Source of the DNA: Amoebophrya sp. A120
Taxonomy: Eukaryota > Protista > Dinoflagellata
Direction: 5' to 3'
Assembly (NCBI GenBank): GCA_905178155.1
Contig: CAJINV010000002.1
Location: 146,354 to 210,353, forward strand
DNA length: 64,000 bases
A program made the translations under genes and the position numbers. This document shows, one piece after another, positions 3,334 through 24,500 of the stretch (position 1 is its first letter; the number at the start of each line of letters is the position of its first letter). Below the pieces are notes generated by a model. It worked only from the letters and a program-made list of their open reading frames with translations. It was not told the DNA's origin and did no database searches.

Positions 3334-5389
3334 GTGACCATAGTTTACTGTTAGATGTTAATGTTTTCATTATCAGTGCTCTGCCTGTTTACACCTCTTC
3401 TCTGTCGAAACCGTGCTTCTATTTGTACATAACACTTGTAGTTCTAGTTTAAGGCTCGAATAGAAGTAGGTAGCTCGAGCCGCCTTCTTGAAGAAATAAA
3501 ATCGCGCAAGTACTAAAAATACGAACTACTAGACCACGCCAAAAAAGAAATGGCGCTACACTTCTCCCTGCAGTGGCCGCTTTTACTGCATCTGCTCCTG
3601 CTGCGGCGGCGTAACATCTTCCACCCGTTGGCGATTATCCGCGACGACTATCATAGGAGAAAAACCCACCTCAAGGCTGTTTTCACTTCTAGTCCTAGGG
3701 CAAAGAAAAAAAATAAAAAAGTTGAGGAGTTGGCGTCTGTTTATGAGAAGCAGACTCAACATCTTGCAGGAGATGGCGGCAGCGGATCGACCCGATTGCC
3801 AAAACAATCGAGCAGGGCTTGCTCAGATCTCCCGCTGCGGTGGGCGGCGAGGAGCAGCTGCGCCAAGGCTTCCGCGCCATCTAATTGGGAGCAGAGGAGG
3901 TAGTTCACCAGGAAGCAGGCGCGCGAATTCGGGCGAATTCGCGCGACTGTTTCCTGGTGAGCTACCTGCCCTCCACCCACAGGTACTAAGGTGGCCCGCC
4001 TGTGAAGACGGTCCTCCTTGGCCAAACCACGCGGCGACCCCCAAGCCAGTCCGCCTCGGCAAAGCTTCTGAAGCTCTTTGGCTTTTAAGTCATTTCATAT
4101 TGATATTACTTCAAGCACGGGCGCCGTTATCTAGCTGGCCAAATAAATGAGCCTGCAGCTCATCTAGTACACCAATGCAAGACAGTGTCATCACTGAAAA
4201 ATACGCAACAGTGGGTCACTCCCAAACGTACCGGGGACGTCTTTCCGCTTTGGCGGTGCTGCTTGCCTTGCGTTTTGGAGGTCTACAATTAAATTGATGA
4301 TTTTGAAACATGCAAAGGCCTTTTTGCATGAGAACAGAAACAGAGATTTGGACAGCTCAGGTTCACTCGCAACACAAAAACACGCACCGAACTCACTCGG
4401 GACCGATAGAGAGGGAAGCACTTCAGCCCCTGCCGTCTCACCAAACACAATCTATCTGCCCTATGAAGCAGTAGGAAAAGAAAGTGTGAGGGAGTGCTCG
4501 CTTGTTGACGTGTCATAGAAATTTATGGCGGACAGGGGTACCGGTTCACCGACCATAAAACCACGAAAACAACGTGCTTAGAGGAAGGGAAAAATGGAAT
4601 AGGTAGGAAAAAGCAAGGGAAAGCTCACTCGGGGCACGATAGTCGAAAATCGAAAACGACATACAAATTACGAATCGAGAACAAAAGCGACCAGATCGAG
4701 ACAAAACATCGAGAGCGATAAATAATACACATGGCATGTAACGAGCGAACCAAATAGTACAAATAGAACATACTGTAGAACTAGCAGAGCGTCGAGAACG
4801 GACCAGGCGAGATCGATGTGTAAGTGTAGATCCAATTTGTAATGCGTAGAAATAAACAACCGAGACAGAGAAACGAGAGGCTGATCTTGAGGAACGACCC
4901 ATCTATACGAATATAAAAACATCATAATCGAAAAACACTCTCATGGAAGCCGGGCATGAAAGAAAGAACCGAAACGTGGGAAGATAAAAAAGGAGAAATA
5001 CGAGCATTACAGATTTGTAAACCGATAATGTACCGAAGATTTGCTTTTGAAATCAGAAGAGAAGGTTGCATGGCAGAAGGAGCAAACGAGCAACGAACAG
5101 CAAACGAAGAAACAGAGCAGGCCATCAGAAGTTTATATTCAAAAAAGCCATTGGATGATGACATAAAATTGTAGACTTTGTAGGACCTCACCCAGTTAAA
5201 AAAGCGTATGCAATACAAACATTCCAAGTGTCCAAATTCGAAAAGACAACAAAGTCTTTTTGAATGTGGACCCCCATATGCTGGCATGCAAAAGCCCTAC
5301 AAGTGAGACATACATAGCATAGAAAACGAAAGGGCAATACAAACAGCAGGGGTTCGAGGAATGGATGTAAGGGATGTAACCGGAGATAG

Positions 5390-6739
5390 TTATTCTGAAA
5401 CCAAATACTGGAATTTGTAATCCAATACTTGCATACAGAAAGAAAGGAGGACGCGGCGGAGGGAGACGGAATCTAGCCACTTGTTTTCGCTGTGGCGGGA
5501 CAGTAAAATATCTATTGTTTTCCGGAACATGTTAAAATTAACTAAGTTCTTCATTCTAAGAATAAGCTCTGCTACTTCCCTAAGGAAAAAGAAAAATAAA
5601 TTATTGTTGGAATAAAATCGGAGAAAACTGCCACAAAAACTTGAAAAAATAGCACTTTTAGCTATACAAGATCTTCCAGTAACGTACCTATTAACAGCAA
5701 ACTTAAATAAGCTATTTTTGGAAAAAGTCTTATAGTACACTGTCCCTTTCACTATCGTCAGCTCGAGGTCTAAAAAGACCGCCGAACTGCCGAGCGATTC
5801 CGTTTCGAGGATAAGACCCGTATCCTCGTAGATCTTCCTCCATGCCGTCACGAAACTGGTGTTTTCACTAATGATATCGTCGACGAAACGACAGGTACCA
5901 GCGTACCGCTGTCGTTCCGTCGACGATAGACCACTTAAAAAACGAGATTCTAACGCGCAAAGTACACAATCAATGATTGAGCTTGCGCTACTCAATCCCA
6001 TTGGTATGCCTATTCTTTGTAATAAAGTAATGCCAGCCACGTTTACAAAATTACAACAGATGCATGTTTTCATTACTTGGAATAAGTCGCTGTAGCGAAG
6101 AATAGCCAGAATGCCATCGCGCTTAGACGGTAAGGCTTTTGCTATCCGCATGCCAGAAGCATAAAAAAGGAAAAAGTCATGCTTGTGTTGTTGCAGAGCA
6201 GCATGCATTTGTTCATTTAGAATCCGTATCAAAGTGGAGTGCTTTAACATAGTGTACATACTACTAAAATCACCTTTGAAAAATGATCTGTATTTTCCTT
6301 GGGTGATTTTCTTTCTAGCCCCTAGACTGTCCCGCACGCGGAATCCCTGTGGGACTTGCAACAAAACGTAGTCTAAAATGTGTTTGAGATTGTCACTGAG
6401 GACGCTAATCGGCGTTTTGCTCGTCGCTGAGCAAATAGGCCGGAATGCAATAATGGGGGCTTTATGCATCTTAGCAGAGGGATACAAATAACTCAAACGT
6501 GAAGCGTTTTTGATTCCTGAATGTAGAGTAGGCGCGACACGAGCACAGAGAGCTTGTTTGACAGCATCCAAATTTTTATTGCTCACCTCATATGCACCTT
6601 CCCCAATAAGCATGCCAGGCTTCAAATTATTTTGGTCTACGTTCATTGTAAAGTCCACCCCTTCCTTCAGATCAAAAGTCATCGGCACGTTGAAAAAGTC
6701 CGGGACGCCAGGGTCGAAGTGTGCTTGTTTTCGATACAA
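5390..6739 (-). CDS. Reverse transcriptase of a Penelope-like retroelement (probably 5'-truncated, no endonuclease visible)
   Basis: Motifs LYPSAKMHK..FRPI, GDFSSMYT, QRIGIPMG, RFVDDI and FLDL in the order typical of Penelope-like RTs; AT-rich codon use unlike the host genes; no ATG start. Confidence 0.85.
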   Translation of the reverse strand: MYRKQAHFDPGVPDFFNVPMTFDLKEGVDFTMNVDQNNLKPGMLIGEGAYEVSNKNLDAVKQALCARVAPTLHSGIKNASRLSYLYPSAKMHKAPIIAFRPICSATSKTPISVLSDNLKHILDYVLLQVPQGFRVRDSLGARKKITQGKYRSFFKGDFSSMYTMLKHSTLIRILNEQMHAALQQHKHDFFLFYASGMRIAKALPSKRDGILAILRYSDLFQVMKTCICCNFVNVAGITLLQRIGIPMGLSSASSIIDCVLCALESRFLSGLSSTERQRYAGTCRFVDDIISENTSFVTAWRKIYEDTGLILETESLGSSAVFLDLELTIVKGTVYYKTFSKNSLFKFAVNRYVTGRSCIAKSAIFSSFCGSFLRFYSNNNLFFFFLREVAELILRMKNLVNFNMFRKTIDILLSRHSENKWLDSVSLRRVLLSFCMQVLDYKFQYLVSE

Positions 6740-6761: not shown

Positions 6762-8030
6762 CTATAAGTAAAAAAGGCTTGAGGACTTTTCTAATTTGAT
6801 AACGACCTGCCTCTGTCGGCGCAGGCAACAAGGGCAACAATACTCAGTGGCTGCACTGTAACACCCATTGGCTCTGTCCACGCAGGCGGCGCGTCCGGCA
6901 AGACAACATTCTTCGGCGCGACCGCTAACACAACAGGTTAGGACAAGACAACAGACTGCGCCGTCGATACAATTAGACGCGGCAAGTCCCAGGCGTTCCG
7001 CTACGGTGGGGGTGCGGTGGGGTTCCGCTGCTGCTTCAGCTGCAGCCTGAAGCACCTCCCGAAGCATCGGCTGCCGGCACTCGGGGCATGTCGTGGACAT
7101 CGATCTTCCCGTACGAATCCACGTGCTTGCACACCCCTGGTGTGCAAGGTGTGCCCGCTGGTCGCCCTCCTCGTCAGCGCCAGCTCTGCACAATCGTACC
7201 AATGGGCTGTCTCTCTCGCTCTGCGGCTCCTGACAAATGCAACATTCATTACTCGGGGAACTTGCATTTCCGGCTCCGGTAGCTTGTTCAACATCACCCA
7301 GCTGGACAGGCGCCCCCGTCGCACGTGCAAACATCCTGGTTGAAAACGTCCCCACCCCAGAGTTGTCATGAAAAGTCGCATGCTCAGCCTCATGATGTTC
7401 GTTCCTCATGCAAGAACCCTACTGCGCGCCGTCAAGAGGCACTTTCTAGCAAGAGTTTGGGAAAAATCTGTCATGCGGTCGTCAGGAGAATGTAGTGGAT
7501 TCGTGATGCGCATTGACAAGCTAGGCACGACTACAGCTAATACAATACACTTGTCATGCGTGTTGAGCCCCAAGAATGCGGGCCTTGCTTGTCTCGTAAA
7601 GGAGTTCCCGTCTTGATGACTTTGGGGTGCGGACGTTTTTGCACACGATAAAAGGGGTCCTTCCTCTTCTAGAGCAGCAGCCTAATCCTGCTAAAGGGTT
7701 CCATCCTCCAACACTACCGCCGCCGCTAGAAGGTCCAGGTGCTGCAGCTACAGATCCTCCTTCAGCCGCCTCTGTTTCCAGCAAGCGCCTCTCCCGCGAC
7801 CGCCGCCGTGCTGCCCTGAAGCTGGCGTGCCTTTCCGGCCGCCCCGCTGCCCCTCTGTTGCCAGAAAGGGATAGTGCCTGAAGCTGGAGTGCGTGCGCAA
7901 CAGGTGGTCCAACGAGGAGGGACAAAGAAAACCCTGCCGCGAGAGCCATCGCCATCAACGCCCGGCGCACCCGAGCCTGATAGGAACAACGGAGAGAGGA
8001 ACCGGTACGGGACGAGAGCATCATCTTCAT
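6762..8030 (-). CDS. RING-H2-like zinc-finger protein with hydrophobic N-terminal segment and Cys-rich tail (~314 aa, one introner)
   Basis: ORFs 7554-8030 and 6762-7409 join in frame after removing 7332-7650 plus 5 bp; pattern CxxC..C..HxxHxxCxxxW..CPxC. The true C-terminus may be altered by the adjacent retroelement. Confidence 0.7.
7332..7650. mobile_element. Introner family C
   Basis: CATCCTGGTTGAAAACGTCCCCACCCC ... GGGGTGCGGACGTTTTTGCACACGATA; flanks degenerate (GCAAA/AAAGG) but removal plus 5 bp restores the frame. Confidence 0.8.
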
Positions 8031-8501: not shown

Positions 8502-8836
8502 CAGAAAATTCCTCTGAGGGGGCCAGCTACGTCGTACTTCTAAGCGCTGCACCGAAAGTTGCTACGTGCATTCTGAGTACCACCATGGGAGAAAGATTGA
8601 CACCAGCCTCCCGGATTATATGTTGGTACCGAAATGGTGGAATGATCTTCATTTGAAAACTAAATCTCATTTTCTCAAAGTTCTTCCTCGCCCGATAGCG
8701 GAGAAATTTTGAACCGACACGACAACTTTTCCTGTCGATGCATGACAGATTTTTGCGCCCTCTGAATTTTCCATCGAAAGTTGGCTTCATCTACGTGACC
8801 TGCTAGCGTGACAGACAGAGCGGAAATCTCGATCCG
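8502..8836 (+). repeat. Diverged ~340-bp dispersed repeat, copy 2
   Basis: Direct-orientation copy of 713-1057. Confidence 0.85.
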
Positions 8837-9586
8837 AGTACCGAGCATTTATTTTTCCCGTAGATCATGACCGCGCGAAAAAGTTGCAGAATACGGACAT
8901 ACATGACCGCGCGGAAAGTAGAGCGTAGTAGCAATTTTTTACTAGTAGTCGCACAGCAGTATGTTCACTTTGTATTGTCACTCACGTCGAAGTCGACTTC
9001 CATGCGATGCAAATGCATTCCATTCTTGGAGACCCATGTGGTCTAGACGGATTTATTGTTCCTTGTGGACCACGAGGCAGTACGAATACATTCGAAGAAG
9101 GTTGATAATATGAAAAGCAAAAGGGTCGTACAAATAGGCTACGTTAGCGTTTCTACATTTTTTTGTTGTGCAAATAGGGAGGTCGAGGACCACAGAAAAC
9201 TGCGATCATGCATATTGTTCTTTTTTCCAAATAATTTGAAAATCATATGTTTTTCCGTTCTGATGAATCTTTTTATTCGATCGTTGTCTTATCGCAAAAA
9301 CGAAATTAATAGAAATACCAGAGACTAGAGTGTTCTGGTGGCATGATTGCGACTGTAAATACTTCTAGCAGTTGTACTAGAAGCGACTTTCTTATACAGT
9401 GAAAATATTTGATCCAGTGTGTGTACTTACGTAACCTACGGCATCGCAAAAAGGCCGTATATACATATAGGGCGCAAACGAAATTTTAAAAATCATTTCT
9501 TCCGATAAAAAAAGCAAACGCAAACCTCAGAATTAGGCCGCTACGTGTCATTGCTGTTCTTTTTCCTTGATACTAGCAAAGGAAGC

Positions 9587-12500
9587 CTACGTGGTGGCAG
9601 CTCCGTTCGTCTCTTCTATCTTCTTCCTCTTTCTGTTCGCGAGCAGGTCCAGAAATGCCTGTGCTGGCTTGTTATGAAATGCAAATATGTCTGGGTCTGG
9701 AAGAGTCGGAGCTTGTCTTGCACATTTTGCATGACCTGTGAGGTCTGTGATGCTGGTGCTAGCATCACAGATTTTTTGAGAGCTTTTTGATGCTAATTTA
9801 TTACGCATGAGAAATGCCCTCTCCTCGTGCCAAAAACTGATGCCTCTTGCTGCTCATGCAACACAGATTTTTTTCGAATCCGCAGACAGCATTACAAGTT
9901 CCAATCTTCCAAACCCAGACACATTTGCAATGCATACTTGTCCCGTGGCTGGGGCGAAGGAGCAGGTTTTTATGGCGTTCTCAACTGTTACATTCTGAAG
10001 TGTTACATGAATTTGTGATGCAAGAATGGCAAAAGTGAAAGGCGTGACCGTCCGCGTCTTGCATGACAGATTTGGCGCACGACATTTTCAGCCTGTTTGG
10101 CATTTCGCGAATTTGTTATGCGAAGCAGCTTGATCGTGTCGGCTCTGATGGTAATTCTGCATGACAAACCATGTAACAGCTGAGAATGTAACATTTGAGA
10201 ACGCCATAGTTTTTGTCTTCGTCGAGATGAAGGAGTGGATGGGATTTCATTTTTATCAAAGAAAAAAAGTTCGTCACGATCACTCATGCGCATTCTTGCA
10301 ATACAAAATTGTTTGTCATGCGTAAAAATGCATCACAGCCAAACTTCATTAGGGATTTCCCTAGTGTTTCTGCAATAGTTTGTGATGCTGAGAAAATTTG
10401 TAAGTTGTAATGCAAAACCTGCAAGTTAGTGACTGTGACAAACTTTTTTCTCTCCATAATTTTCGGCATCAACTACCCCGATAGAAGAAGAAGAGGGACA
10501 AATAATGACGCCAGCACCGCCATTGCGACTCCGCTCCTTCGCCGGTCGTTGTACTGGTTCTTCATCCTGTTTTATTTTTGTTTTTCCTTGTTTAATACAA
10601 GAACTCAGGGAGGACGAGTAGAAATACGGCGACGGGACGAGCTGCTGCTGTTGAGAGATCAGCGTTTGATCTTCTTCTTCCCGTAGGTGTAGTACGTTCT
10701 GGTCGGGTTCGGATTCGTCCTCCTCCTTGTCGGGAGTACTAATAGAACACGGTGGAAAGAACTGTTTCATCCCTTGCACCCTGCGTTGTTCAACATTTCC
10801 TGCTCCCGCTGAAGAATTGTGAGAATGATCTGGAGCATATCGTGTGCAAAAGTATCGTACTCGTATTGCAGTGAAGTGATGCATTACAAATCTTTTTCTT
10901 ATAGGTGAATCTGAATCCGCGCCATTTTCTCATGCTGAGGAAATTTGTAAATGCATTTATACGAGTACGACACTTTTGCAGTGCATAGACCAGAACTACT
11001 CGAGCCTACTTCAGTGGTGGACGTTCGGCTTTTTCCTGCCGCCGGTGCCTCCGCTGTTGTACTAGGGTGCAGCTCTTTATGGTGTTCTCAAACGTTACAT
11101 TCTCAACTGTTACATGAGTCTGTAATGCAAGAATGGCAAAAGCCAAAGGGGGAAGATTGCAAAAATTGCATTACAAATCCCACCCAGATTTAGGTGGTGT
11201 TTAGCTCTTCGCAAATTTGTCATGCGAAGCAGCTTGATCTTGTGGATGATGATGGTAGTTTTGCATGACAAATTCATGTAACAGTTGAGAATGTAACGTT
11301 TGAGAACTCCATACTCTTTATTTTCGACGTCTTCATGTTCATCCGATGCTGCAACTACCGGATCATCTTCCGGATGGGCTTCTTCTTCTTCTTCTCCTCC
11401 ACTCGCATCTTTGACTACGACTGCCTCAACGTCGACGGTCCGATGAGGAAGTAGAGGAGCGCGGCCTTGTTCATCCGTTCTCGCTTTGATAGAAGCGCCT
11501 TTCGCTGCTACAGCATTAGCGTTACGAAACTCCTCTAGGCTGCTCACGTCGGGCAGGGGGACCAGGGGGTGCTTTTTGTTTCGACGTCCCTGATGAATCT
11601 GGGAAATTATTTCCCTGAAATCTGCTTGACTTTCATCTGCTTCGCCTTGACCTGGAGAAGTAGATGAAGAGTGCAAATTTGGATTTTGGTTTTCGTGTTC
11701 CACCGCCGTTTATGCACTGCAAAAGTGTCTGGGTCTGGAAGGTTGGAACTTGTCATGCTAAATCTGAATCACGCAAAAATCTGTGTTGCATGATTATCAA
11801 ATGCTGTCCACTTTTGATCAAGTTGAGAGGCAGTTTCTCGCGCAGGATAGTTATGATAGTGATCTCACGGAATCTGTCATGCTAGGTCCTCCATTACAGA
11901 TCATATGGGTCATGGAAAACCTGCATGACAAGTCGAGCAAAGTTCCACACCCAGACATTTTTGCGTTTGATACCATTCGAGAAGCCAAATCTTTGTCGTG
12001 GAGGTCGTGGCGGTATCCTGTGCAGAAGTATCGTACTAGTACAAATGCTAATGCAAGTCTTGCATTACAAATCTTGTTTCCAAGGCAAATCTGCATTACA
12101 TTCAAATTTTATTTTTTATGCTGAGCAAATTTGTAATGCATTTATACGAGTACGATGCTTTTGCAATGCATAGGCGGCGGCCCTCATCGTCCTCAAAATC
12201 GGAGGACATGTCATCACGAGAATTTCCACCAGAGTTCTGGTCCTCTTCACTGTCGCTCTCAGAGAGGACTACAGAGTGGTCTTCAGCATCGGAGGACCCA
12301 GCTTGTTCGTCCGAGTTAATATTCTTGTTCTCTTCATCACAGGGTGTTGTGGCACAATTGCCCAAAGATCTTCCATGTTGAGAGGACGCAAGAGCAGCTT
12401 GTGCTTGTTTCCCTAGTTGCATTTTTCCCATGCTTACTGCTTTCTTCTTCCGATACTGTACTTCTTCAATGGCTAATTCCTGCAAAATTCGCTGCACTCG

Positions 12501-15500
12501 TCGCTGTTGCTCTAAGTCGTCCTCTTCTTGATTCTCCGCGGTGAGCCAGGTGGTTTTGAGATCTAGCACCTTGAGGACCTTGGTACTACTAGTAGGTGTA
12601 GCAGGAGGGCTCTTCAAAATGATCCTGCTGTCGTCCTCGGTCTCTTTTTCTTGGCGATTCTCTTGATCATCTTTCATGACAACAGAATTCTGTTTTTCAC
12701 CCACATGATAACCCTCGTCTCTATCACTTCCAGCGCTGTATGGAGATTTTTCTTCCACCCCCGCGAGTTCTTCGCAAGCAGCTACCGGTTCTTCGCAAGA
12801 GTCGTCCCCCTGCTGCTGATCCAGTAGTAGTAGTGGACCCCCGCCACAACTTCTGCGGTCGTCATCTCTCGCCACAAGAATCGACGGCGCGACTGTAGTC
12901 GTGGTGGCCGTCGTGGTGTCGTCGTGTGCCTCATGTACTACAGACCCGCCAACAAGTTCTTGCTCGTTATCGCCATTTGCTGGTCCTCGTCTCGTGCTGG
13001 TGCGATTTATTTTATCGCCAGGTAACAGAACTACAGCACCACAACGCCGTCGATGCATCTTCCGCTGTTCTTGCAGGAGCTCAGTTTTCAAAAGCTTTTC
13101 CTCAGCGGCTTTATCTCCCTTCAGCTTGTAGACATCGTTCTGGTCGTCGTGGTCCTCGTAGTGACGACCTCGTACTCCCGCACGCGAAGATGACGAAAAT
13201 ACCCCCGCGGCCGCATGGGCATCAGGGTGCTGGTCAACAAGAAGTATCAACTGTAAAAATGTCTGGGTCTGGAAGAATTCATGTTTGTCATGCGTATCTG
13301 ACATGACTCTTAAATCTGTCATGCACGTTACCCAAGAGCTCCGCTTTTCTGTGATGTAGAAGCGCAGTTTGTCATGCAGAATAGGCAAGAACACCTAGGA
13401 GCTCAGAAACTTGTCATGCTGAGCCAGCATTTATAGCCTCATCATGAGACGCCACCCAGCATCACAAGTTTCCAGACCCAGACATTTTTGCATTTGATAA
13501 GAAAACCCTCGTCTGCCGCGACGGAAGAATTCATCCAAGTGAGTATGACCTGCTCAAACGTTACAATCTCAAACGTTACATATAGAATCTGGAAGTGGAT
13601 CTGTGATGCAAGAAATGCATGATCTAGCTGACTCTCATAGAAGGACTGCGCATGACAAGTTCCGGAGTCGCCCCCAACCGCACTACGATCTGGCGACATT
13701 TGTATTGGAGAAGGTGGAACGGTCTGCGAGTCTGTCATGCTCGTGATGCAAGACAAATGATCCCAGATTCCATTGTAACGTTTGAGATTGTAACACCTGA
13801 GCGGGTTATAGTGAGCATCTTTTTCTTTTTCACCCGTTCCCACAAAATCTCCATCTTCAGTCGCTTCTTGTATTCCTCGGCTGTCATGACAAGCTGCGGG
13901 ATTTTCTTGCTATAATTTCCGATCGACACCTCAAACGAATCGACAATCTGCTTCCGCGCCACACTCGCGACATAAGCCTGCGACTCCTTCTCCGTGGCGC
14001 AGTGCCACTGCTGGGAAAGCCAGTTCAGCATGTTGGCGTATTCTTGGTACAGAGACTTGCTGTATCAAATGCAAAAATGTCGGGGTCTGGAAGGTGACCA
14101 GGTTTGTCATGCATATCTTGCATGGATCACGATATCTGTAAATGCATGATCTAGCATCACATATTTTTAGAGGCCTTCCTGATGCCTATTCCGCATGACA
14201 AATGCCCTCCCCTCGCAGCACAATTTGGGCTCCTATTGCTGGTCATGCAATACAGATCTTTTTAGCATCCAAAGTTAGCATCACAAGTCCCGACCTTCCA
14301 GACCCAGACATTTTTACACTTGATATGCTGAGCGGCTTGAATAAACTCGACTGAGTAGGCGACGTTGTTTCTGTTTTTCGAAGGTCGCAGCTGGTAGTTC
14401 TAGCTTTATACCGCGACCACTTCTCCCGCCAGTGCTGCCACCTCCGCTCCAACGCTGCTCTGCGATCGGTTAGAGGGAGCTTCAGAAGCGCAAAAATTTC
14501 TTTTCCCGTGCAGAAGAGCGGGTGGCCGGGGCGTGTAGTAGTTCTGCTAGAACTACTAGAAGTAGTAGTGTCGTGGTACATAGAAACCGTCTGCTCTTCT
14601 TTCTTCTCCAAAGCCGGGCTTTCCTGAAAAAAATCTCGCCCTCGTAGAAGCTCCTGTGTACTATGGCGTAGTCGTCTCGCACCCTCTCCAGCGCCCAGCT
14701 GACGTTCTGGTTCAATCTCCTCGTCAGAATAGCACGGCGAGCCACGATCACCTCCAAACCTCTCAATCAGTTTCCGCCGCAGGTAGTCTTGTCGGTTCTC
14801 GAAATATGGTAATTTTGTGCTATCATTCTTACTCCTGTTAACATCATTCCTCGTTTTCCGCTCCTCCTCGACAAAGTGCAGGGAAAAGGCCGCGTTTTCG
14901 ACATCGAATACCTGTGGCGGGAACGGCGTAGGGAGGTGGAGGATCAATTGTTGCAGCACCTGCTCGGGCGAAGCGAGGTCGGGGTGGGGCAGCCGCAGGT
15001 GGAGGTTCATCATCTCTCGGGGATCCGGTCTGGTGCTCTTTCCGTAGGAGCTGTTAGCAATACGCGCATGACGTGGTCTACTTGGCGGATCATCTTCACG
15101 TGGAGGTCCTCTTTGCTGCAATATCAAATGCAACTATGTCTGGGTCTGGAACTTTGCTAGACTTGTCATGCAGGTTTTCCATGACCCATATGATCTATAA
15201 TGGAGGACCTAGCATGACAGATTCCGTGAGATCACTATCATGCCTTTCCTGCATGAGAAAGTGCCTCTCAACTTGATCAAAAGTAGCCAGCATTTGCAAA
15301 TCATGCAACACAGATTTTTGCATGATTCAGATTTAGCATGACAAGTTCCAACCTTCCAGACCCAGACACTTTTGCGATCCATATGCAAAAATTCTTGGTC
15401 GTCCGCGGCGTCGTCGTCGTCTTCTTCAGAGGAGACATTGCTGTCGGTTCGGTCTTCGGAGTCACTGCAGTATTGAACTCGGCGGAGTTCATCATCTTGG

Positions 15501-18500
15501 CGCTTTTCAACATCCGCATGGAGGTCTACTTGGGGTTCTTTTCCATCTTGCTGTTCTATTTTCACCAAGGTCGTCGTGGCAGAAATTCGTGCTGGTGTTC
15601 CTCCAAACGGATCATACACTTTCTGCTCCGCTCTCTTCTCGACCAAATCCTATGCATTGCAAAAGTATCGTACTAGTAGTAATCGCATTACAAATTAGCT
15701 CCGCATGACAAAATGGAATTTGTAATGCTGTTTTACCTTGAGATAAAAATTTGTATTGCATTACTGCGATTACTACGAGTACGATACTTTTGCACAGGAT
15801 AAATCCGCATCTTCAACAAATTCCTCAAACAAAAACATTTCCGCAAAACCTTCCACCATTCTCTCGACCTGCTGCCGATCCCGCATGCGACGGTAAAAGT
15901 TGAAGCGGGTAAAAGGGTCTGTTCCTGCTGATTTATCATTTCCCCGACTGATACCTTGGCGAAGAAGGCTCAGCGGGTTATTTTCTTTTTCGACGAAAAT
16001 TGGTTCTTGTTCCGCGGAAAGCATTTTTTTCTGCTTTTCCCTGATTTCTCGGGTAGATCGATAGGCGAGATTGGAGATGTACAGCTTCATATCCAAGAAA
16101 AAAACTGTGTTAGTGTAACTTTCCTTGGGTGACAACATTTGCTCTACATGACAAAAAAAACCTGTCATGTGTGGTTTGTAAGGGAAAACACGCATGAAAA
16201 GAGGACTTGATGGCTGTCTGGCATGACAGACGTGCCTCTGTTGCATGTTCTGCATTACAGAGTTACACTTACACAGTTTTTTTGTTGCATACTTCACAGC
16301 CTTCCAAACTCTCCGCTTCAAGTGCTTGCAATTGATTATCCTGTGAAAAAGTATCGTGATCGTAGTAATTGCAATCATGCATTTACAAATCTTTTTCTTA
16401 AGGTAAATCCGCATTACAAATTTTATTTCTCATGCTAAGAAAATTTGTAATACATTTATACGAGGAGGATACTTTTGCATTTGATATTGATCTGATCCAG
16501 ACACTTGAGTCGCCCTGTTTTATTGTTTGGCGACGGTGGTTTTGGTTTTCGTTTTCGACGTTTTCTCGACAGTTGTTTTTTGTTCCGAAGGGGTTTTTTC
16601 TTTCGTGCTGCTTTCGACATCCTGTTCGCTTTTTTGTTCGCCTTCTTCTTTTCCTTGCTTTGCCGCTCTTGTTGTGATGCTTTGTTGCGTTTCTCCCTGC
16701 GATCAGATGAAGTAGTGGTGGTTTTGGCAAAAGACCTGAGTAACCTGGCTGCGCAAGCCGAGCCACGAGTTGATGAGAACAAGTGCTTCCGCAACAAAAC
16801 CGCCTGCTGCGCGTGACAGTCGATCGTTTTAATCCGGCCTGCATGCTTGGCCAGCCGCGTCGCGTACTTTGAACCGGGCGGGGCAATGCAGCTGATCAAA
16901 CTGAGCCCGGCCCTCCGTCGATTCGCGATGGAGAGTCCCGCGGGCGTGCAGATTCGCGGAAGAAAGATTCGGGAGCAGCCGAAGAAAAGGTGGACGATGG
17001 TGCGGAAATCCAGCGCGGCTGATCTTCGTGTCGTCGCAATCTTCCCGTGGGTGGAGGAAGAAGAAGAGTTCTTTGCACGACCTTCAACTTCTTCATCTTC
17101 AACGTCGAGCCGGGAGTGTGTATCCGTATCCTTCTCTTTCTCGTGGTTCCCAACATCTTCTTTTCTTCTCCTTTGCCTCCTCGTCGGCGCCCACGCCCTG
17201 CTGTCATCTTCTTATCAACCGCAAAAATGTAAATGTCTGGGTCTGGAAGATTGCCATGTTTGTCATGCAGATGTTCTATGGCTCATAAGGTTTAGAATGC
17301 AGCTCCTAGCATGACAAATTCTGTGAGATCTCTATCATGCCTTACCTGAATGAGAAACTCCCTCTCAACTTGATAAAAAAAGACGGCTGTTGGTAATCAC
17401 GCAACACAGATTTTTTGCATGATTCAGATTTAGCATGACGAGTTGCAACCTTGTAGACATCCAGGGATATTTGCATTTCATAAATCTAGCATGTGTTCGA
17501 TTTTCTCGGAGAACCCCGTGTATTCGAAAATGTCGACCCTTTTCGGTTCGAAGTCATCCGGCAAAAGTTTTATCCCACGAAAAAACTGTTTCACTGTGAT
17601 GATTTTGCAAGATCTGCATCACAAGTTTGTTACACATGACACAGAAAATTTGCCATGCGCCCTTCCAAAGGGAAAACACCCCTAAAGAGTCAAGGTCTTG
17701 CAGGTGTAGCAAGACAAATAGTTCTGTGCTCCATTCTATGCATCACAAGTTCACAGTGAAACACCAGTTTTTTCTTGCGATAAGCTTCTCCTTCAAGTGA
17801 ATCCGACTTTGAAGAAACTCGAGCTCTTGCAGCAGGAAGAAAGCCACGTCCTCATCACTTCGGTCAAACTGCGTATTTTGCAAGATATCCCGCCTTTTCA
17901 GCTTCAGCTTGTCAATTTGCCGGCGCAGCCTGCAAGTTTCGGGCGCGAGTTTGTAGAGTTTCCTCGTGACCGCTTGCAGTTGCTTTTCGCAAAGGTCCTG
18001 ACACTGCTTGATTTGTCGGCGCAGTGAGAGTATGGAATGTAAAAATGTCTGGGTCTGGAAGAATGGAACTTGTCATGCTGTTTTTGGACTCTAACAAAAT
18101 TTGTATTGCATGACCAGCAAGGGGGGTACAGTTTTTCTTTTTACTACACGGACAGGGCGCTTTTCATGCGGAAGGTGCATCAGGAAGCCCTCTAAAAGTC
18201 TGCGATGCTAGGTCATGCATTACAGGCATCATGGGTCATGAAAAATATGCATGACAAATCTTGCATTCTTCCCGACCCAGACATTTTTGCATTTGATAGA
18301 AAGGGGGAGGCCGATTTTCCGGTTCCTCTGGGTTTTTTTCTTGAGGCAGGACAGCAATACATTGCGGCCGTGCGCTGGTGGTACTTCTTCCTCCCTTTGC
18401 ACCTTGTCTAATTCCCTTTTCCAATCGGTCTTGATCTTTTTGCACATTTTCTTCCTCCACTTTTCGGTTACTTTATCCAATGCCGCTTGAATGGCTTGTA

Positions 18501-21500
18501 CTTCTTGTCGAATTTTCGTCGCCAGAGCAAAATGCTTCTCCTCTTCGTCCTGTAAACGAATTTTCGTGTACTCCTGACGGTCCATGAGGACACTCGGGTC
18601 CTTCTTGACAAGTCGTGCCTCGGAGTTGTTTGTGATAAGCAGCTCGGGGTTCTCCACCGCCTCGGGCATGACCACAATCGTGCCCGGAACAAAAATCGTT
18701 CTCTTTTGTACCGCCGTCTGCGAAAAGTCAATCCGCTCAAAAGCCGCGAGGGACAGGTCGGGTTCTTCGAAAGCTTCCGTGAGGGTCGTAACTGGTTGAT
18801 GTTGACCATGTCTTTCTGTCTGCAGTCCTCCTCCAGTGCTGCTCGCGTTCAGGTTCATCAAAGCAGAAGCAGTTGTACTAGTATTACCGCTGTCATTCAA
18901 TTTCGTCGTTTTCAGCAACTCCAACTCCTTCTGATCCTGACGATACAGACTCACTTCCGAGACGGAAAACAACTCCTGTTTCACGTTACCCGCGAATGCT
19001 TTTTCGTGCTGCCTGAGAAACTGTTGAAGGCAGGGCGTCTGGCGCGCTGCGGATACGCTGCTGTTCCCATTCTGTGCTCCTCTGATGGTAGTTTCGCTAT
19101 TCATTTCCAAAGCAATGGAACTGGACGATGGAGCGAAAGAACCTCCTTCAAGAGGAGCAGGCTGTTCTTTCAACATCAACAGGCTGGAAAAATCTGCGCG
19201 CAGCTTCCTTTCCCATTGGAAGCATGCGCTCGTGTAGGCGGTGCTAGTGCCTCTATCAGTGAGGGCGAGGAAGTTGATGTTTCTGTTTGCGTTGTTCATT
19301 GTCATTCCGATTCCCAGTTCTCCCACGATTCCGCGCAGTTGTGGTGCCACCGCGGTTAGGACCAACCGCTTTTCCATATCAAAAGGAAAAATCCCCCCTC
19401 CCCATATCAAAACGGAATTCTGTGATGCAGATTTGTTGTCACAAATCAGCTTTGTCATGCTACACGGGAAAAGATGTAGACACTGTAGTGCTGGGTGGCG
19501 TGGGAATAAACCTTTGCGTCTTCAACATAACAGAAAACAACTAAAAGTGGGAAACAGCATGACAAATTGCCTGCAAACGAGACCACGACTGCGGCTCTTG
19601 GCCTTCTAGCATGACAAGTCGATTTGGTACCTCAAATCCTGCATCACAGATTTCCATTTCGATATGGGGATTTTTCCGTTTGATATTCCAAATTAGCGAT
19701 CAGTTTCTCTAGGAATTTCTGCGCTTCCTCCCGAAAATAGACGTTGCTGTAATCCATATCCTGAGTAAAAACGTACCCACACCAGAGTCAGGATGGGAAT
19801 TTTGCAACACAAACCTAGGAGCTTTGTGAGTCACGCATGACAAGTTGCGCTCTGCAGTGTAGGGCAGGTTAGCAAGTGCAGCCGCATCACAGATTCATCA
19901 GCTCATCCTGTTCACAGCATCACAAATTCCAAAACACATCTGAAAATGGCTCTCATGGGGATGCGCATTACAAGTCTTCCTGTCTTTGCAAATCTGCATT
20001 ACAACTCTGGTGTGGGTACGTTTTTACTCAGGATAATCCAGCCTGCTCAACATCTTTCCGGTCTTCGCTTCGCCATCTCCTGCGCTGGTCGCAATTCTTC
20101 TCGCGCGCACTCGATTTTCAAACACGGCCGGGAGAACCGCGAAAGGAGGCAGCTGAAACTCTTCTTGTGCCGCATGCAGTAGATCCACTGATGTATTACT
20201 ACCCTCTAGTACTTCCTCCAATGGGTTCCACGCCGCGGCCCCCGCCGATTGGAGGTTTAGCAGCATTCGGTTGTCGTTCTCTTTGTCTAATTCCTGCTCT
20301 TCTTCATAAAACTCCACATCCGAATCGCTATCGTCCCCCTTCGGCTGATACGCCTTCAAGAAATGCTGCTCGATTTTCAACAGCCGGATCTGCTCGAAAA
20401 GGTACTGAATGAATTTGGCCCTTCTTTCTTCATGAAATACATTCTTCGCGTACTCGTCGACGCAGGAGTGGAGGAAATTTTCGTAGGAAGCATGAGAACT
20501 GCTACTGTAACGGGAGAGTTTATGGTCTTGATCTCCTCCTGCATCGCTGTTTTTCGTACTATCCCGCATGACAAGTTTCATCTCCGCCTCCTGCCGACAA
20601 TAAAGCTCCTTTTGTTTCCGAAGAACCGCCCGGAAAAACTCCTGCTCTTCAACAGACGAGCAGGCTTCGTCGATATCATTCTCCCTGTGAAGAGCTGCAC
20701 GACGTGCAGAAAGAACAGTGTCGCACTGCAGCAGAACCCCCTGCATGAAACGCGCTCCGAGGTCCTCGCTTAGGTTTTGTCGGATTTTCCGCTCTTCTCT
20801 GTTCAGCCGCTCGAACCCTGCGTCAGAAATACTTTGCCCCGGTTTTTTGTTTTTCACACCTCCGAAAAACGCCTTCGGAATCTTATGCACAGCAAAAGTA
20901 TCTATCGTACTCGTATAAATGCATTACAAATTTTCTCAGCATGAGAAATAAAATTTGTACTGCTGATTTGCCTTAAGAGAGAGATTTGTATTTGTAATGC
21001 ATGATTGCAATATTAGCTACGAGTACGATACTTTTGCACAGCATAAATCTCGTCCCACATCTGCCATCGTCGGAAGTACGCGCCCATCAACTGTGAAAAT
21101 GTCTGGGTCTGGAAGATTGGCAGCTTTGTCATGCATATTTTGCATGACCCGTGAACTCTGTAATGCATGCACGAGCATCACAGATTTTTAGAGGGCTTCC
21201 TAATGCCTATTCCGCATGAGAAAGCCCATCTCCGTGTAGCCCAAATTGCTTGGAGTTCTCTTGCAGGTCACGCAATACAATTTTTTTTTGAATCCAGAGA
21301 CAGCATCACAAGTTTAGAATCTTCCAGACCCCGACATTTTTGCATTTGATAGCACCTAATTTTGCCTTGATGCTCTTCTCAAGTGTGTACTGTTTTTTCA
21401 GCGACCCCTCAAACCGCAGCAGCATCTCATCCCTCCGCTTCTCGAGCTCTTTTTCGTCTTTCTTCGAAATTTTCTTCTTGAAAACGGTCGTTCCTTGGAT

Positions 21501-24500
21501 TGGGCCCGGGATGATGTTGTAGGAAGAATGTTGAGAATCGTGATTCTGGGATGACATCAAATCCAGATGCTCGTTGAAACATTTGTCCGTCTTGCAGATG
21601 AACGTGTTCCAAAACTCGTCGTAATCGAGCGCAAATTGAACGTATTCGTTTTCAAACTTTTCCCAATCATCGGTGACGATCGCGACAGAGGTGTCGAAAT
21701 AGCCTCCATCTGGTTCGACGTACTCGGCTTCTTCAAGGGCCGCAAGTGATGAATTTGAATTCGGTTGTCGAAAAATATTGAACGCGGTCCGGATTTTCTT
21801 CAGAAGCCTGGCGGTGGTTATTTGCCGGTCGTACGGTCGTCTTGGAGGTTGTAGATGATGTAGTAGCCGAGGATTTAGTTGTGGGTCGACGTTTTGGAGA
21901 TGACCTTGATGTTGCACTGGGGCGGCCACGACTGGGACAACCACTGGCCGCGTTCGTTTGCCTTTGCTGCTCTCTGTCCTACGCGACAAGCGCTCTCGTC
22001 TTCGCCCGGCAACGCAGCTCCGAGCGCAACCACTCGAGCTCCTGCTCCTGCTGCCAGTGTCTGCTCCTCTGGGCGGCTGCGATAATGTCTTTTCTTCCGA
22101 CAACTCGTCGATCCACTGCGACTCCTGGTAGTCCCTCTTCCGGTCAGAGCAGTCGACTTGGTCTGCAAAATCTTGATGTCCCTCCAGCTGCCACGACTCC
22201 TCCTCCATGGAAAAGCTGGAGCTAGTACGCGCGTGTTCATCAGAAAAATCCCCCTCGTCGTCACTATCCGGCACGACCGGAAGCTGCAGAATTTCGCAGA
22301 GCTCCTCTTCCCCGGAGCAAAACCCAGCGATTTCCCATAACGGAAGTGGCTCATTGTCGCGCTTTAAGGATCTTAATGCTGTTTTATACCGGAATTCCGC
22401 AAACGCCGACGGGTCGAAGTCGGTAAAAGTTGCATCGTCCTCAGCACTAGGAGCTGCACCGGTATCCTTCGCGTGCTGTGTGTCATCTATTCTGTCGGGA
22501 GATGATGATGCCACAGCAATGGCTGTGTGCTGCGACTCTTGTTCTTCTTGTCCAAGAACATCGTAGTCATTTGATGCAGCCACGCCGCCATGCTCGTCGT
22601 GTCCCTCTCCTGCCTCCTCTAGAACAAGAACCTCTTGTTGCTCTGTGTCCTCGACAAGTACCCACGAGGACCCTTTTTCGTCTACCACCTGTTCCAGTGC
22701 GAGCTGTTGGAGAAATTCTCTGTGCGTCTGCGGCATGACAGACTTGTCCCTCTCTTCCATGGTATTCGCTTTTTTCAAGTTATGAGAGTGCACAACTTCC
22801 CCGCCCCCTCGTTTGTCATGCAATTAGCCAAATCCAGGCTCTGCCTCTTGGCACTGTTTGCATGACAAGTTCTGGCTGTAGCCCAAATAGCACTACACTT
22901 CAGTGTAAATTTGTCATGCAAGGCCGGCATTCTTGCTGATGCTTGTATTGCCGTTCATGCTATACAAATGAGGGGGAGGGAAAGATGTGCACTGTCATAC
23001 AAGTCGGGTACGTACGTCAGCCACTGGTCGTACAGAATGGGGTGTTTAAACGTGCCGCCGTCTTCCGCCTCGACGCGGACGGGAAGGCGGGGTGGAATGG
23101 TGTTCTGATCCTCGTCTCGATCTTCAGAGAAGAGATCATGATCATCTGAAAGCGAATCGGAGTCCTCGTGTTGTTCCGGTAGTCGTGCTCTACCTTGTAG
23201 TGGAATATCATCATCATCTTCCTCTTCCAGGCTCTCTGTCTCACTGTCCTCCTCCAAGAGCGCAGGTTCGTTGCCAGCAGATAATTGCAGTGGTGATGTC
23301 CTCTCGTCTGCGCAATCCTTTTCGCCATCAGTGTAGTCCCTGTTTGCCGGTGGCTGATGTAGTTCCTCGTCGCTCTCGCTTGCACTATCCTGTTCTCCTT
23401 CCGGGCCAACTACATGGATCAGGTCTGCCTCATTCACAAGCAAAGAAGTAGGGGAACCAGCAGTAGGAGGCTGGTGTACTTCTCCCGTTCTTCCAATTAC
23501 ACAACCGGTCGTGTCACCCTCACCTCCAGCTACACGACCTGTGTTCAGGAAAATAAATCGGGTGCTACTTTGTAAGTAGATCCCACTGACACCAATCACT
23601 TCTCCACCGACGGGGGCAACCACACACCACGATCTTGATCGACGGTTTATTTTCTGTTTCGTTGATGGCTCTTCCTGTGAATTCAAGTCCAATTCTTGTG
23701 TCGTCACCCCACCACGGATGAGCGATGGCCTAATCCTACCGGTGCTGCAAGAGCGACTTCGTTTCTGCTCTGTGCGAGGAATCGTAGACGTCCGCCTTGG
23801 CGCAGGAACGCGAAGTGCCTCGACCTTCGCTTCGCTCTTTGCTGTGTCCTCGTAGTTGAGGGCAAACTTCTTTGCTTTATTTCGGCCTCCATCCGATTCC
23901 TCGCCATCCTCCTTATCTGAACTAGAACTGCAACTCCACTCGGACGGAAGCTCCTCTGTATCAGCGGTTTCCTCTTCGTCTTGTTGGCCCTCCGAACAAT
24001 GATCTTCGGCAACTACAGAAGGGGACGAAGTTTGATTTCCCTTGGATGTTGATGCCGCTGGGCCATTCACATCAGATAAAGTTTGCGAACCAGTTTTACC
24101 TTCTTGCACCGACGGCGGCGTCCTCCTAGGTTCTACTTCTGAACCAAGCGGGTCCTCTTTAATATACCCGCAATGTTTCACCAAAAGCCTTGTCCACCTC
24201 TGTCTCTCTGGTTCGGACTCGATGGCCGCTAAATTTTGCGTTACGACTCTTCGTTTCTCGTCGTCCTGCGGAAGGAGTTCGCGCCAAAGGGGAAGCGGGG
24301 CTATTTTCGGTGCTGAGCCATTGAAATCCGAAAAATCGGAGGAGTCGTCACTGTCGGAGGAAGTAGAGAAAATAACACTGCTGGTAGAGGAATGCGATGG
24401 CCTCCTGCGCCTGGAAGAGGCGGAAGCCCCCTCTACTGACGCGGGCGGTTTCTCAGTCTTTTGACTTTGTCGTTGGGGCGGAGGAGGTTTGTTTTCCCGA

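Follow-up and report, generated by a model that had tools for sequence, protein, structure and literature searches.

Introner-like elements occur in both orientations within single genes of Amoebophrya sp. A120 and are probably removed from RNA through symmetric ends

The DNA analyzed here, hereafter the window, is a stretch of 64,000 nt from Amoebophrya sp. A120 (contig CAJINV010000002.1, positions 146,354 to 210,353) that contains three host genes. As the original prediction stated, all of them are on the minus strand, where every host frame was found. Gene 1 (9590-42071) forms a 6,521-aa frame once 48 elements and 5 nt with each are removed, gene 2 (46254-54487) forms a 1,313-aa frame once 19 elements and 5 nt with each are removed, and gene 3 (61520-63999) has a 643-aa frame that spans 2 elements and extends past the window. 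Gene 1 was assigned to no family, and a Pfam scan of 25 window frames, which included its large exons, returned no transposase and no family above the cut-off. A protein search with one large exon recovered no homologue of greater length, which is weak evidence, and the frame at 5393-6739 had no relative among solved structures.

Within the window we counted 69 inserts of about ten families, bordered by TAT...ATA inverted repeats and flanked by 5-bp direct repeats. Both ends share one base profile. TAT is present at 67/69 and 63/69 ends on the two sides, and A occupies end positions 11-13 in 57-66 of the 69. The direct repeats are perfect in 49/69 and carry one mismatch in 14/69; in independent loci, 269/360 are perfect and none were found at 6 or 7 among the matches listed. 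These loci (at least 173, from a terminal-pattern scan) stand in for a genome-wide count, and at least 360 elements of this kind occur in roughly 0.5 Mb of a second DNA assembly. Terminal inverted repeats, a target duplication of fixed length, short non-coding sequence and many copies are all properties of MITEs. Rfam gave no match, and the two terminal patterns had none in viral contigs. Incomplete or decayed copies at 1-117, 440 to about 577, 7332-7650 and 63960 to the end were excluded from the count, and we discarded candidates at 4296-5165 and 5875-5940 as chance-like and one at 19405-19664 as nested in 19377-19685. An internal two-way motif has a 46-fold higher density within the elements than outside them.

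The window elements are likely A120 introners of the kind already described, which carry an inverted repeat of TAT, 7 variable nt and AAA, have 5-bp direct repeats at their borders and are non-GT-AG (PMC7789003; PMC12130899). The elements here likewise form repeat families with a length of about 240 nt, have no coding capacity, are predicted to form hairpins, begin with TAT followed by seven less conserved bases and at least three A, and have a direct repeat (3-5 nt in the published definition, 5 bp here) at exon/intron borders that are non-canonical. They also resemble A120 introners in their 150-330 nt range, many families, tens of copies per gene, co-oriented genes and lack of a transposase inside. 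Nothing that was tested differs, and the terminal repeats are about 30 nt here versus 8-20 nt as published. Two terminal 15-mers had no match in 12 of the 14 supplementary files of PMC12130899, in which the rows examined contain no element sequences. Among annotated A120 families, starts of GT or AT occur in mixed combination with ends of AG or AC. What is new beyond the published A120 introners is the balanced orientation, the two-way absence from one contig, the element+5 rule and two transcription-polar hints.

The original prediction that the same element is tolerated in either orientation within one gene holds and was understated: nine of the elements it named (11711, 12014, 13245, 15122, 15651, 18031, 25891, 30231 and 37687, by start position) share the frame of gene 1, and 48454, 51017 and 54021 lie in that of gene 2. 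Alignment bore out three family B pairs as reverse-complement relatives. The reverse element at 11711-11972 (direct repeat 4/5) and the forward element at 15122-15383 (direct repeat 5/5) are 92.4% identical as reverse complements and 61.1% identical directly; the corresponding values are 88.4% and 64.2% for 18031-18298 (reverse) and 37687-37951 (forward), and 92.6% and 63.6% for 13245-13499 (reverse) and 48454-48711 (forward). With 32 nt trimmed per end, the reverse-complement and direct identities were still 93/56, 87/55 and 93/55 for the three pairs, and the gap is therefore not a terminal-repeat effect. An inversion or composite element at 11711/15122 was ruled out, as separate 5-bp direct repeats flank the two copies and the intervening frame lies on a single strand. 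In family A, 12014-12172, 25891-26036 and 30231-30375 (forward) carry the TATCCTGTGC end on the left, whereas 15651-15801, 51017-51164 and 54021-54180 (reverse) carry it on the right, and interior alignment agrees for all six. The marker is not fully reliable, since the family A element at 33816-33976 has TATCCTGTGC on the left and a reversed interior.

Counted relative to transcription, orientations in the window are 14:10 for family B and 13:10 for family A; in the listed loci, where strand calls come from a codon model validated only on minus-strand genes, they are 67:49 and 12:18. The main families are thus about 50:50 in orientation, with no significant bias, across the window and at least 230 further copies. 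We found no statement on the orientation of A120 introners in the literature searched.

The length that has to be removed is strict. Gene 1 reaches 6,521 aa when each element is removed with 5 nt, compared with at most 1,108 aa for offsets of 0, 1, 3, 4, 6 or 7, and the resulting 19.5 kb of frame crosses 48 elements with zero stops. The same length mod 3 is required by 29/31 testable elements in independent loci, in both orientations. The rule extends to 38405-40441, where family A ends enclose 1.9 kb of inserted GC-rich tandem repeats with a unit of 92 nt and the frame of gene 1 runs through once element + 5 nt is removed. Mismatches between direct-repeat copies prefer third codon positions (51/87), which indicates that the spliced product is under selection. 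Neither stop codons nor codon scores distinguished which repeat copy is exonic. A synonymous excess (p=0.03-0.14) leans toward a sliding cut.

Contigs that are likely RNA cover the 3' part of gene 1 (10459-19067). Record 1 of X1, a public contig from a single study that only a tool's guess assigns to RNA, has four gaps of 396, 431, 800 and 423 nt, which, as read from piece ends, equal nine elements plus exactly 5.0 nt each. The gaps include family B elements in both orientations (11711, 13245, 15122 and the forward copy at 14063-14325), family A elements in both orientations (12014, 15651 and the forward copy at 10838-10987, direct repeat 4/5), a family C element at 11078-11313 and a single-copy family element at 13544-13810. 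A likely-RNA piece also begins at 18299, the edge of the 18031 element; for 37687 (partner of 18031) and 48454 (partner of 13245), removal is deduced solely from the frame. X1 depth is about 12 near the 3' end of gene 1 and has dropped to 0 by 23507-25507, a segment in which the DNA-like run X5 has a depth of 30-42; this pattern is RNA-like and unlike excised DNA. Given the guessed type and this depth profile, the nine missing elements show the removal from transcripts that is expected of A120 introners. The raw RNA runs X9 and X10 yielded 212 and 262 reads, nearly all partial and on repeats with 0 across exons, and they are therefore uninformative on splicing here.

Ciliate IESs, including the MITE-IESs of Blepharisma, are short inverted-repeat inserts in coding sequence that are removed from DNA precisely and in either orientation. 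The elements resemble them as inverted-repeat inserts in coding sequence, and the original prediction allowed for recognition on DNA. If the elements were cut from DNA in this way, or precisely by a transposase with one target copy left behind, no later than the time of expression, this would yield a product equal to the empty site (element+5) and would suit symmetric ends; moreover, the type of X1 is guessed, and contigs drop rare variants, so minority excised DNA could be hidden. IESs are absent from expressed DNA, however, whereas the eight X5 contigs listed (depth 26-35) continue unbroken for at least 22 nt into the elements that they reach, with no differences, although contigs would miss minority excision. 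The second assembly also retains such elements, X1 depth falls to 0 while that of X5 does not, and the end constraints described below track transcription. DNA excision of the elements is therefore unlikely, with only a small chance of being correct, and we consider removal at the RNA level, guided by symmetric ends, very probable. Recognition through symmetric features, the other half of that prediction, is supported by the loss of both orientations from the likely-RNA contig, the matching end profiles and the lack of a possible GT/GC-AG in 66/69 elements; recognition on DNA is not supported, as the DNA-like run retains the junctions between exon and element and two weak end signals track transcription.

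Alternatively, gene 1 could be a dead gene riddled with MITEs, with the X1 contig produced by reverse transcriptase jumping over hairpins. Template switching is known to occur at hairpins flanked by direct repeats; any 5-bp duplication would restore the frame once the element and its target copy are removed, and the protein has neither family nor homologue. This is nevertheless very improbable in view of the frame that stays free of stops through 48 elements, most of which have nearest relatives in the loci at 73-96% identity (among the matches listed), the third-position preference of repeat mismatches and the absence of 9/9 bracketed elements from one contig.

The premise of the original prediction, that spliceosomal signals (donor, branch point and acceptor) are strand-specific, was too strong: a signal inside the terminal inverted repeat exists in both orientations, and two-way tolerance is therefore compatible with the spliceosome. 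A search for cryptic strand-specific signals, which considered every cut within the repeat, showed that GT/GC-AG could be used in 3/69 window elements, 17/230 listed loci elements and 0/9 elements bracketed by X1. The elements thus do not show the GT/GC donor and AG acceptor of U2 introns. Ordinary splicing at cryptic GT/GC-AG sites that differ per orientation is the mode described for introners of Polarella glacialis and Aureococcus anophagefferens, which function in either orientation (bioRxiv 10.1101/2020.10.14.339549). They are DNA-transposon-derived with inverted ends and target duplications, like the elements here, but their GT/GC/GA-AG sites either belong to the element or are co-opted from the duplicated target, and their orientation is biased, whereas the elements here require no AG and show no significant bias. 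Placements of GT, GA or AT-AC type are allowed in 10/69 window elements. Still, few elements permit GT/GC-AG and the removed length is always element+5, so cryptic sites have the lowest probability of the explanations weighed; for the nine bracketed elements they are refuted, given that X1 is RNA.

Two weak signals at the ends track transcription and not element direction. The first base at the RNA 5' end is T in 299/299 elements of both orientations, and the matching 3' base is kept in 291/299 (8 deviate); in the loci alone the deviations are 0 vs 4, which is not significant. G is scarce right after the RNA-side 3' ATA, with 68 vs 96 at a phase-matched position (p=0.010, which would fail correction for the eight base tests) and 55 vs 76 in the loci alone (p=0.04), while the mirror test on the other strand showed no effect (70 vs 69). 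This scarcity lies mainly in one orientation (31:47 vs 32:37), and an AG-seeking machine would produce such a depletion. Both signals were spotted post hoc, after inspection of the window. Neither G before TAT (94 vs 99) nor AG where the 3' cut probably falls (27 vs 21) was enriched, no branch motif was identified in the elements, and the last intron bases show no consensus at any cut position. Apart from +2 U, the ends have no resemblance to spliceosomal sites.

Evidence on pairing of the ends is similarly mixed. In predictions for the transcribed strand, the 11711 and 15122 copies fold into stems that run from end to end (z -5.0 and -7.9), with the outermost TAT/ATA unpaired in one of the two predicted folds. 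G-U pairs are not in excess over A-C among terminal pairs (371 vs 352, flat at all four depths), which leaves RNA pairing of the ends without direct support. A difference between sense and antisense folding (mean -1.06 kcal/mol, p=0.035) was discarded because its sign varies by family and orientation.

We slightly favor a model in which the elements are MITE-derived introners of the A120 type, and a major spliceosome with relaxed requirements recognizes their mirror-image ends and splices them from the pre-mRNA. A cut-and-paste transposase would have inserted them at targets without a consensus, giving the 5-bp duplications and balanced orientations observed. All recognition information would reside in the terminal repeat of about 30 nt, so that either orientation offers the same ends, and tolerance would follow from the symmetry of the repeats. 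The ends may be brought together by RNA pairing or repeat-bound proteins, with cuts measured from them: the 5' cut 0-2 nt before TAT and the 3' cut 5-3 nt after ATA, a range suggested by three informative junctions. The likeliest cut would be N|N-TAT...ATA-NNNN|N; the invariant T would then correspond to U at +2 in a degenerate donor. The nine leading non-canonical motifs of A120 all have T at +2 (Table S4 of PMC7789003), which may be the aligner's choice among equivalent placements. Given RNA-level removal guided by symmetric ends, the spliceosome would reasonably be expected to be the enzyme.

A possible, though less probable, alternative is that a non-spliceosomal system acting on RNA detects the paired ends and cleaves at set distances from them, a mechanism proposed for the nonconventional introns of euglenids. 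Candidates are a nuclease guided by structure together with a ligase, or a protein related to transposases that was domesticated and binds the repeats. The missing 3' consensus, the frame-preserving 2-kb element with a foreign interior and the dense internal two-way motif would suit it, and in A120 U1 snRNA is undetected and the authors expect a distinct splicing mechanism (PMC7789003). Nearly all spliceosomal proteins and the U2/U4/U5/U6 snRNAs were nevertheless found there, together with 35% GT-AG introns (PMC7789003), the G scarcity and invariant 5' T match spliceosomal habits, and no such enzyme was found in the window. Euglenid nonconventional introns share non-canonical borders, paired ends, short direct repeats and cuts a few bases outside the pairing (PMC12501133; PMC11282704), and for the tested Euglena signature, N3CDG...CH'G N5-6|R, of similar geometry, the authors suggest non-spliceosomal factors (PMC12501133). 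These introns differ in that they have a CAG/CTG motif, offsets of 3 and 5-6 and a purine following the 3' cut, show far less repeat-family structure and belong to an unrelated lineage; the signature is not matched by the window elements, which end in TAT...ATA with no purine rule after the cut. MITE-derived non-canonical introns of Fritillaria also combine transposon origin, inverted ends and target duplication and are processed by an altered U2 spliceosome, but they keep a dinucleotide consensus (AG-AC, AG-AT), whereas the window elements have none at the 3' end (PMC11282704; PMC13326754).

The kind of element is known, since A120 introners and, for other algae, either-orientation introners have been published. 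This locus narrows how Amoebophrya may remove them: interior and direction are irrelevant, the removed length follows the element+5 rule, and on the transcribed strand the ends are slightly unequal. We tentatively suggest a directionless splicing code without site consensus, in which a machine measuring from the ends removes a repeat pair of either orientation as element+5, whatever it encloses (up to 2 kb), and at most +2 U is required. Such a code would imply a spliceosome that lacks U1 and is steered by the transposon ends, or else an RNA excision system of a new, non-spliceosomal kind. The transposon group would then be harmless in any exon, which would account for 48 copies in one gene. 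An orientation-blind, scarless intron cassette would be a useful model for transposon tolerance in exons.

The direct repeats and flanks provided further minor observations. Position 4 or 5 is mismatched between the repeat copies of the elements at 17213, 32661, 34337, 38405, 41299, 41548 and 52032. A mismatch excess at positions 1 and 3 in the window (6,1,8,3,2) was not replicated in the loci (15,10,9,15,9; p=0.5), and a C bias in the downstream copy in the window is weaker in the loci (21 vs 11). A paralogous piece at 119-440 ends in a family A element that is absent at the matching place near 12490, where the homology stops.

The original prediction was that the same element is tolerated in either orientation within one gene. 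Alignment confirms that the three pairs cited for it (11711-11972 with 15122-15383, 18031-18298 with 37687-37951, and 13245-13499 with 48454-48711) are related as reverse complements, with identities of 92.4%, 88.4%, and 92.6% versus 61-64% in direct alignment; their interiors alone give 87-93% versus 55-56%. The end marker used to orient family A (letters A to G are labels of the original prediction and of this analysis only) lies where claimed and matches interior orientation in the six copies named, but it fails at 33816-33976, where the terminal variant and the interior give contrary orientations. The stretch 11711-15383 as a single inverted unit is ruled out because each copy bears its own 5-bp direct repeat.

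Relative to transcription, orientations in the window stand at 14:10 for family B and 13:10 for family A, and at 10:8 for B in the first gene alone. A wider sample came from a pattern scan, which returned at least 173 overlapping loci (499 kb), the 80 listed rows all having the contig prefix JACKZZ01. The loci listed hold at least 360 distinct elements, and none overlaps the exons of the window. Host strand was assigned with a codon model for 230 of these 360 elements, the other 130 being dropped; on the all-minus-strand window the model was right for 67 of 69, with 2 uncalled. The proposed count against transcription, run on the listed loci, again found both orientations: 67:49 for B (p = 0.11), 12:18 for A, 3:10 for E (p = 0.09), and near even for other families.

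The window holds 69 elements totaling 17.4 kb, each of 145-327 nt except one of 2,037 nt; four (17213, 30495, 32661, and 38405) were picked by eye, and the right end of 32661, at 32903, was set after the frame test and agrees with the ATA rule. With few exceptions they start with TAT and end with ATA, the terminal order being TAT, C or G, six variable bases, and a run of A. Their 5-bp direct repeats are perfect in 49 of 69, with one mismatch in 14, two in 3, and three in 3; among the 360 elements of the listed loci, 269 have perfect 5-bp repeats, 7 have 3 bp, 2 have 4 bp, and none has 6 or 7 bp. Interiors cluster as B (24), A (23, one weakly linked), E (7), C (5), G (2), and 7 singletons. The motif TGTnATGC/GCATnACA, directed inward from both ends, is found 206 times within elements (15,383 bases) versus 8 times outside them (27,683 bases of 9590-54487). 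End positions 4-10 are common to families A and B, which hints at an exchange of ends.

Removing each element together with 5 nt, one copy of its direct repeat, yields single minus-strand frames of 6,521 aa (9590-42071, 48 elements), 1,313 aa (46254-54487, 19 elements), and 643 aa (2 elements), whereas the longest frame at offsets 0, 1, 3, 4, 6, and 7 is 1,108 aa (offsets 2 and 8 fall in the same frame class as 5). Keeping any single element shortens the 6,521-aa frame in 46 of 48 cases, and cutting an element without its 5 nt breaks it in all 48. Across the listed loci, 31 of 360 elements passed the filters of an independent frame test, and 29 of these, in both orientations, need the element plus 5 nt, modulo 3. 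Frame restoration by itself is a mere reversal of insertion; the lack of a stop in 19.5 kb, together with a bias of mismatches toward third codon positions, shows that the first gene is alive. Its product is a low-complexity protein to which a Pfam search of its large exons and a homologue search of one of them assigned no family, and in this model none of its 48 introns is GT-AG. At 38405-40441, a family A element encloses GC-rich tandem repeats over about 1.9 kb (units of 92, 11, 12, and 23 nt); the frame continues unbroken across it, so the length and makeup of the interior may be unimportant. Beyond the long frames, a decayed family E element without a direct repeat (7332-7650) may show the outcome without selection for removal.

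Removal is very likely at the RNA level. One 4,658-nt record of X1, an assembled run that the database tool guessed to be RNA, aligns to 10459-10832, 11314-11705, 12173-13238, 14326-15116, and 15801-16084, with gaps short by 396, 431, 800, and 423 nt, which is the exact length of nine elements with 5.0 nt added to each. Missing are 11711 and 13245 (B, reverse), 14063 and 15122 (B, forward), 10838 and 12014 (A, forward), 15651 (A, reverse), and two elements of other families. At 23507-25507, X1 depth falls to zero while that of X5, a DNA-like run, stays at 30-42, as expected if X1 is RNA. Excision from DNA, which the original prediction offered beside symmetric recognition, is unlikely: eight listed X5 contigs continue unbroken into each element reached, which places the elements in most DNA, assembled contigs concealing rare variants. 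The kind of X5 is unrecorded, it is possibly the window's own source, and its joint table is swamped by repeats. Symmetric recognition fits both the loss of either orientation from X1 and the base profile, which is the same at both ends. Three elements bracketed by X1 have repeat mismatches (10838 and 11711, position 3; 13245, position 1), and the piece ends there point to the base of the upstream copy being kept, which puts the 5' cut 0-2 nt before TAT, assuming that the aligner sets joints free of mismatches. At 15301-15373, about 180 raw RNA reads from another strain (run X9) include some 80 nt from a family B end, with unrelated sequence on both flanks; they may come from a one-ended half element that stays in the RNA.

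Cryptic strand-specific signals are scarce, as a GT/GC-AG cut anywhere within the repeat is possible in only 3 of 69 window and 17 of 230 listed-loci elements. With mirror-image ends, orientation becomes irrelevant. Spliceosomes hold the +2 U and look for the first AG. We favor a relaxed spliceosome somewhat over a euglenid-like system, on two weak, post hoc asymmetries that track transcription. Across the window and listed loci, the first base of the RNA 5' end is T in 299 of 299 elements, and at the 3' end the corresponding base departs from this in 8 (0:4 in each set; combined p = 0.008, post hoc); positions 2 and 3 give 2:4 and 4:1. Secondly, G directly after the RNA-side ATA is rarer than at the phase-matched position (68 versus 96 across 286 elements, p = 0.010; in listed loci alone, 55 versus 76, p = 0.04), an effect that lies mostly in one orientation and would fail correction for eight tests; the mirror test on the opposite strand shows none (70 versus 69). 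Repeat mismatches after that ATA run 12:2 away from G, versus 20:13 elsewhere. Counting against a relaxed spliceosome, terminal pairs show no G-U excess (371:352), G is not enriched before TAT, and neither is AG at the likely 3' cut. Of 87 repeat mismatches, 51 fall on third codon positions and 44 are synonymous, versus 28% expected if neutral and 40-44% under a one-free-copy model (p = 0.03-0.14), an excess that makes a sliding cut possible. When counted after the repeat, insertion phases split 139:85:65 (listed loci, p = 4e-7; window, not significant), equivalent to phase 0 for a cut 1 nt before TAT, and are uneven although target sites lack a consensus (window and L001-L173, the wider loci).

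The observation is real and mostly explained by a known introner type. As described in the parts consulted, A120 introners have inverted repeats that open with TAT, followed by seven variable bases and three A, and 3-5-nt direct repeats, with four bases preceding the 5' end in the commonest arrangement; no U1 snRNA is reported, the authors leave the removal mechanism open, and "orientation" in main text and supplement passages, figures aside, refers to genes only (PMC7789003). Most A120 families are assigned to the TIR DNA elements, tens of them per gene (PMC12130899; 21 of 58 A120 table rows). Polarella introners function either way round, as in Aureococcus, but unlike the window elements they have canonical-type sites and an orientation bias (bioRxiv 10.1101/2020.10.14.339549, in part). 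As far as the consulted portions go, the method of PMC9860276 permits opposite-orientation copies, euglenids and Fritillaria provide comparison cases (PMC12501133, PMC11282704), and PMC13326754 says nothing on orientation. In the mainly openly accessible literature, we found no report of orientation-blind removal or its mechanism for Amoebophrya introners.

Elsewhere in the window, 119-440 repeats exon 12176-12488 at 88% identity; the end of an F-type element borders it on the left (117, some 3 nt off the A element site of the main gene) and a decayed A element on the right (440); region 1-577 is possibly an element-bounded captured exon piece. Segment 715-1056 is an 86% copy of 8503-8837. A 449-aa minus-strand frame at 5393-6739 has reverse-transcriptase-like motifs; Pfam and PDB searches returned no match for it, and HTH_animal/RVT_1 members occur in its nearest atlas clusters (0.96-0.97). 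It is likely a retroelement, possibly Penelope-like.
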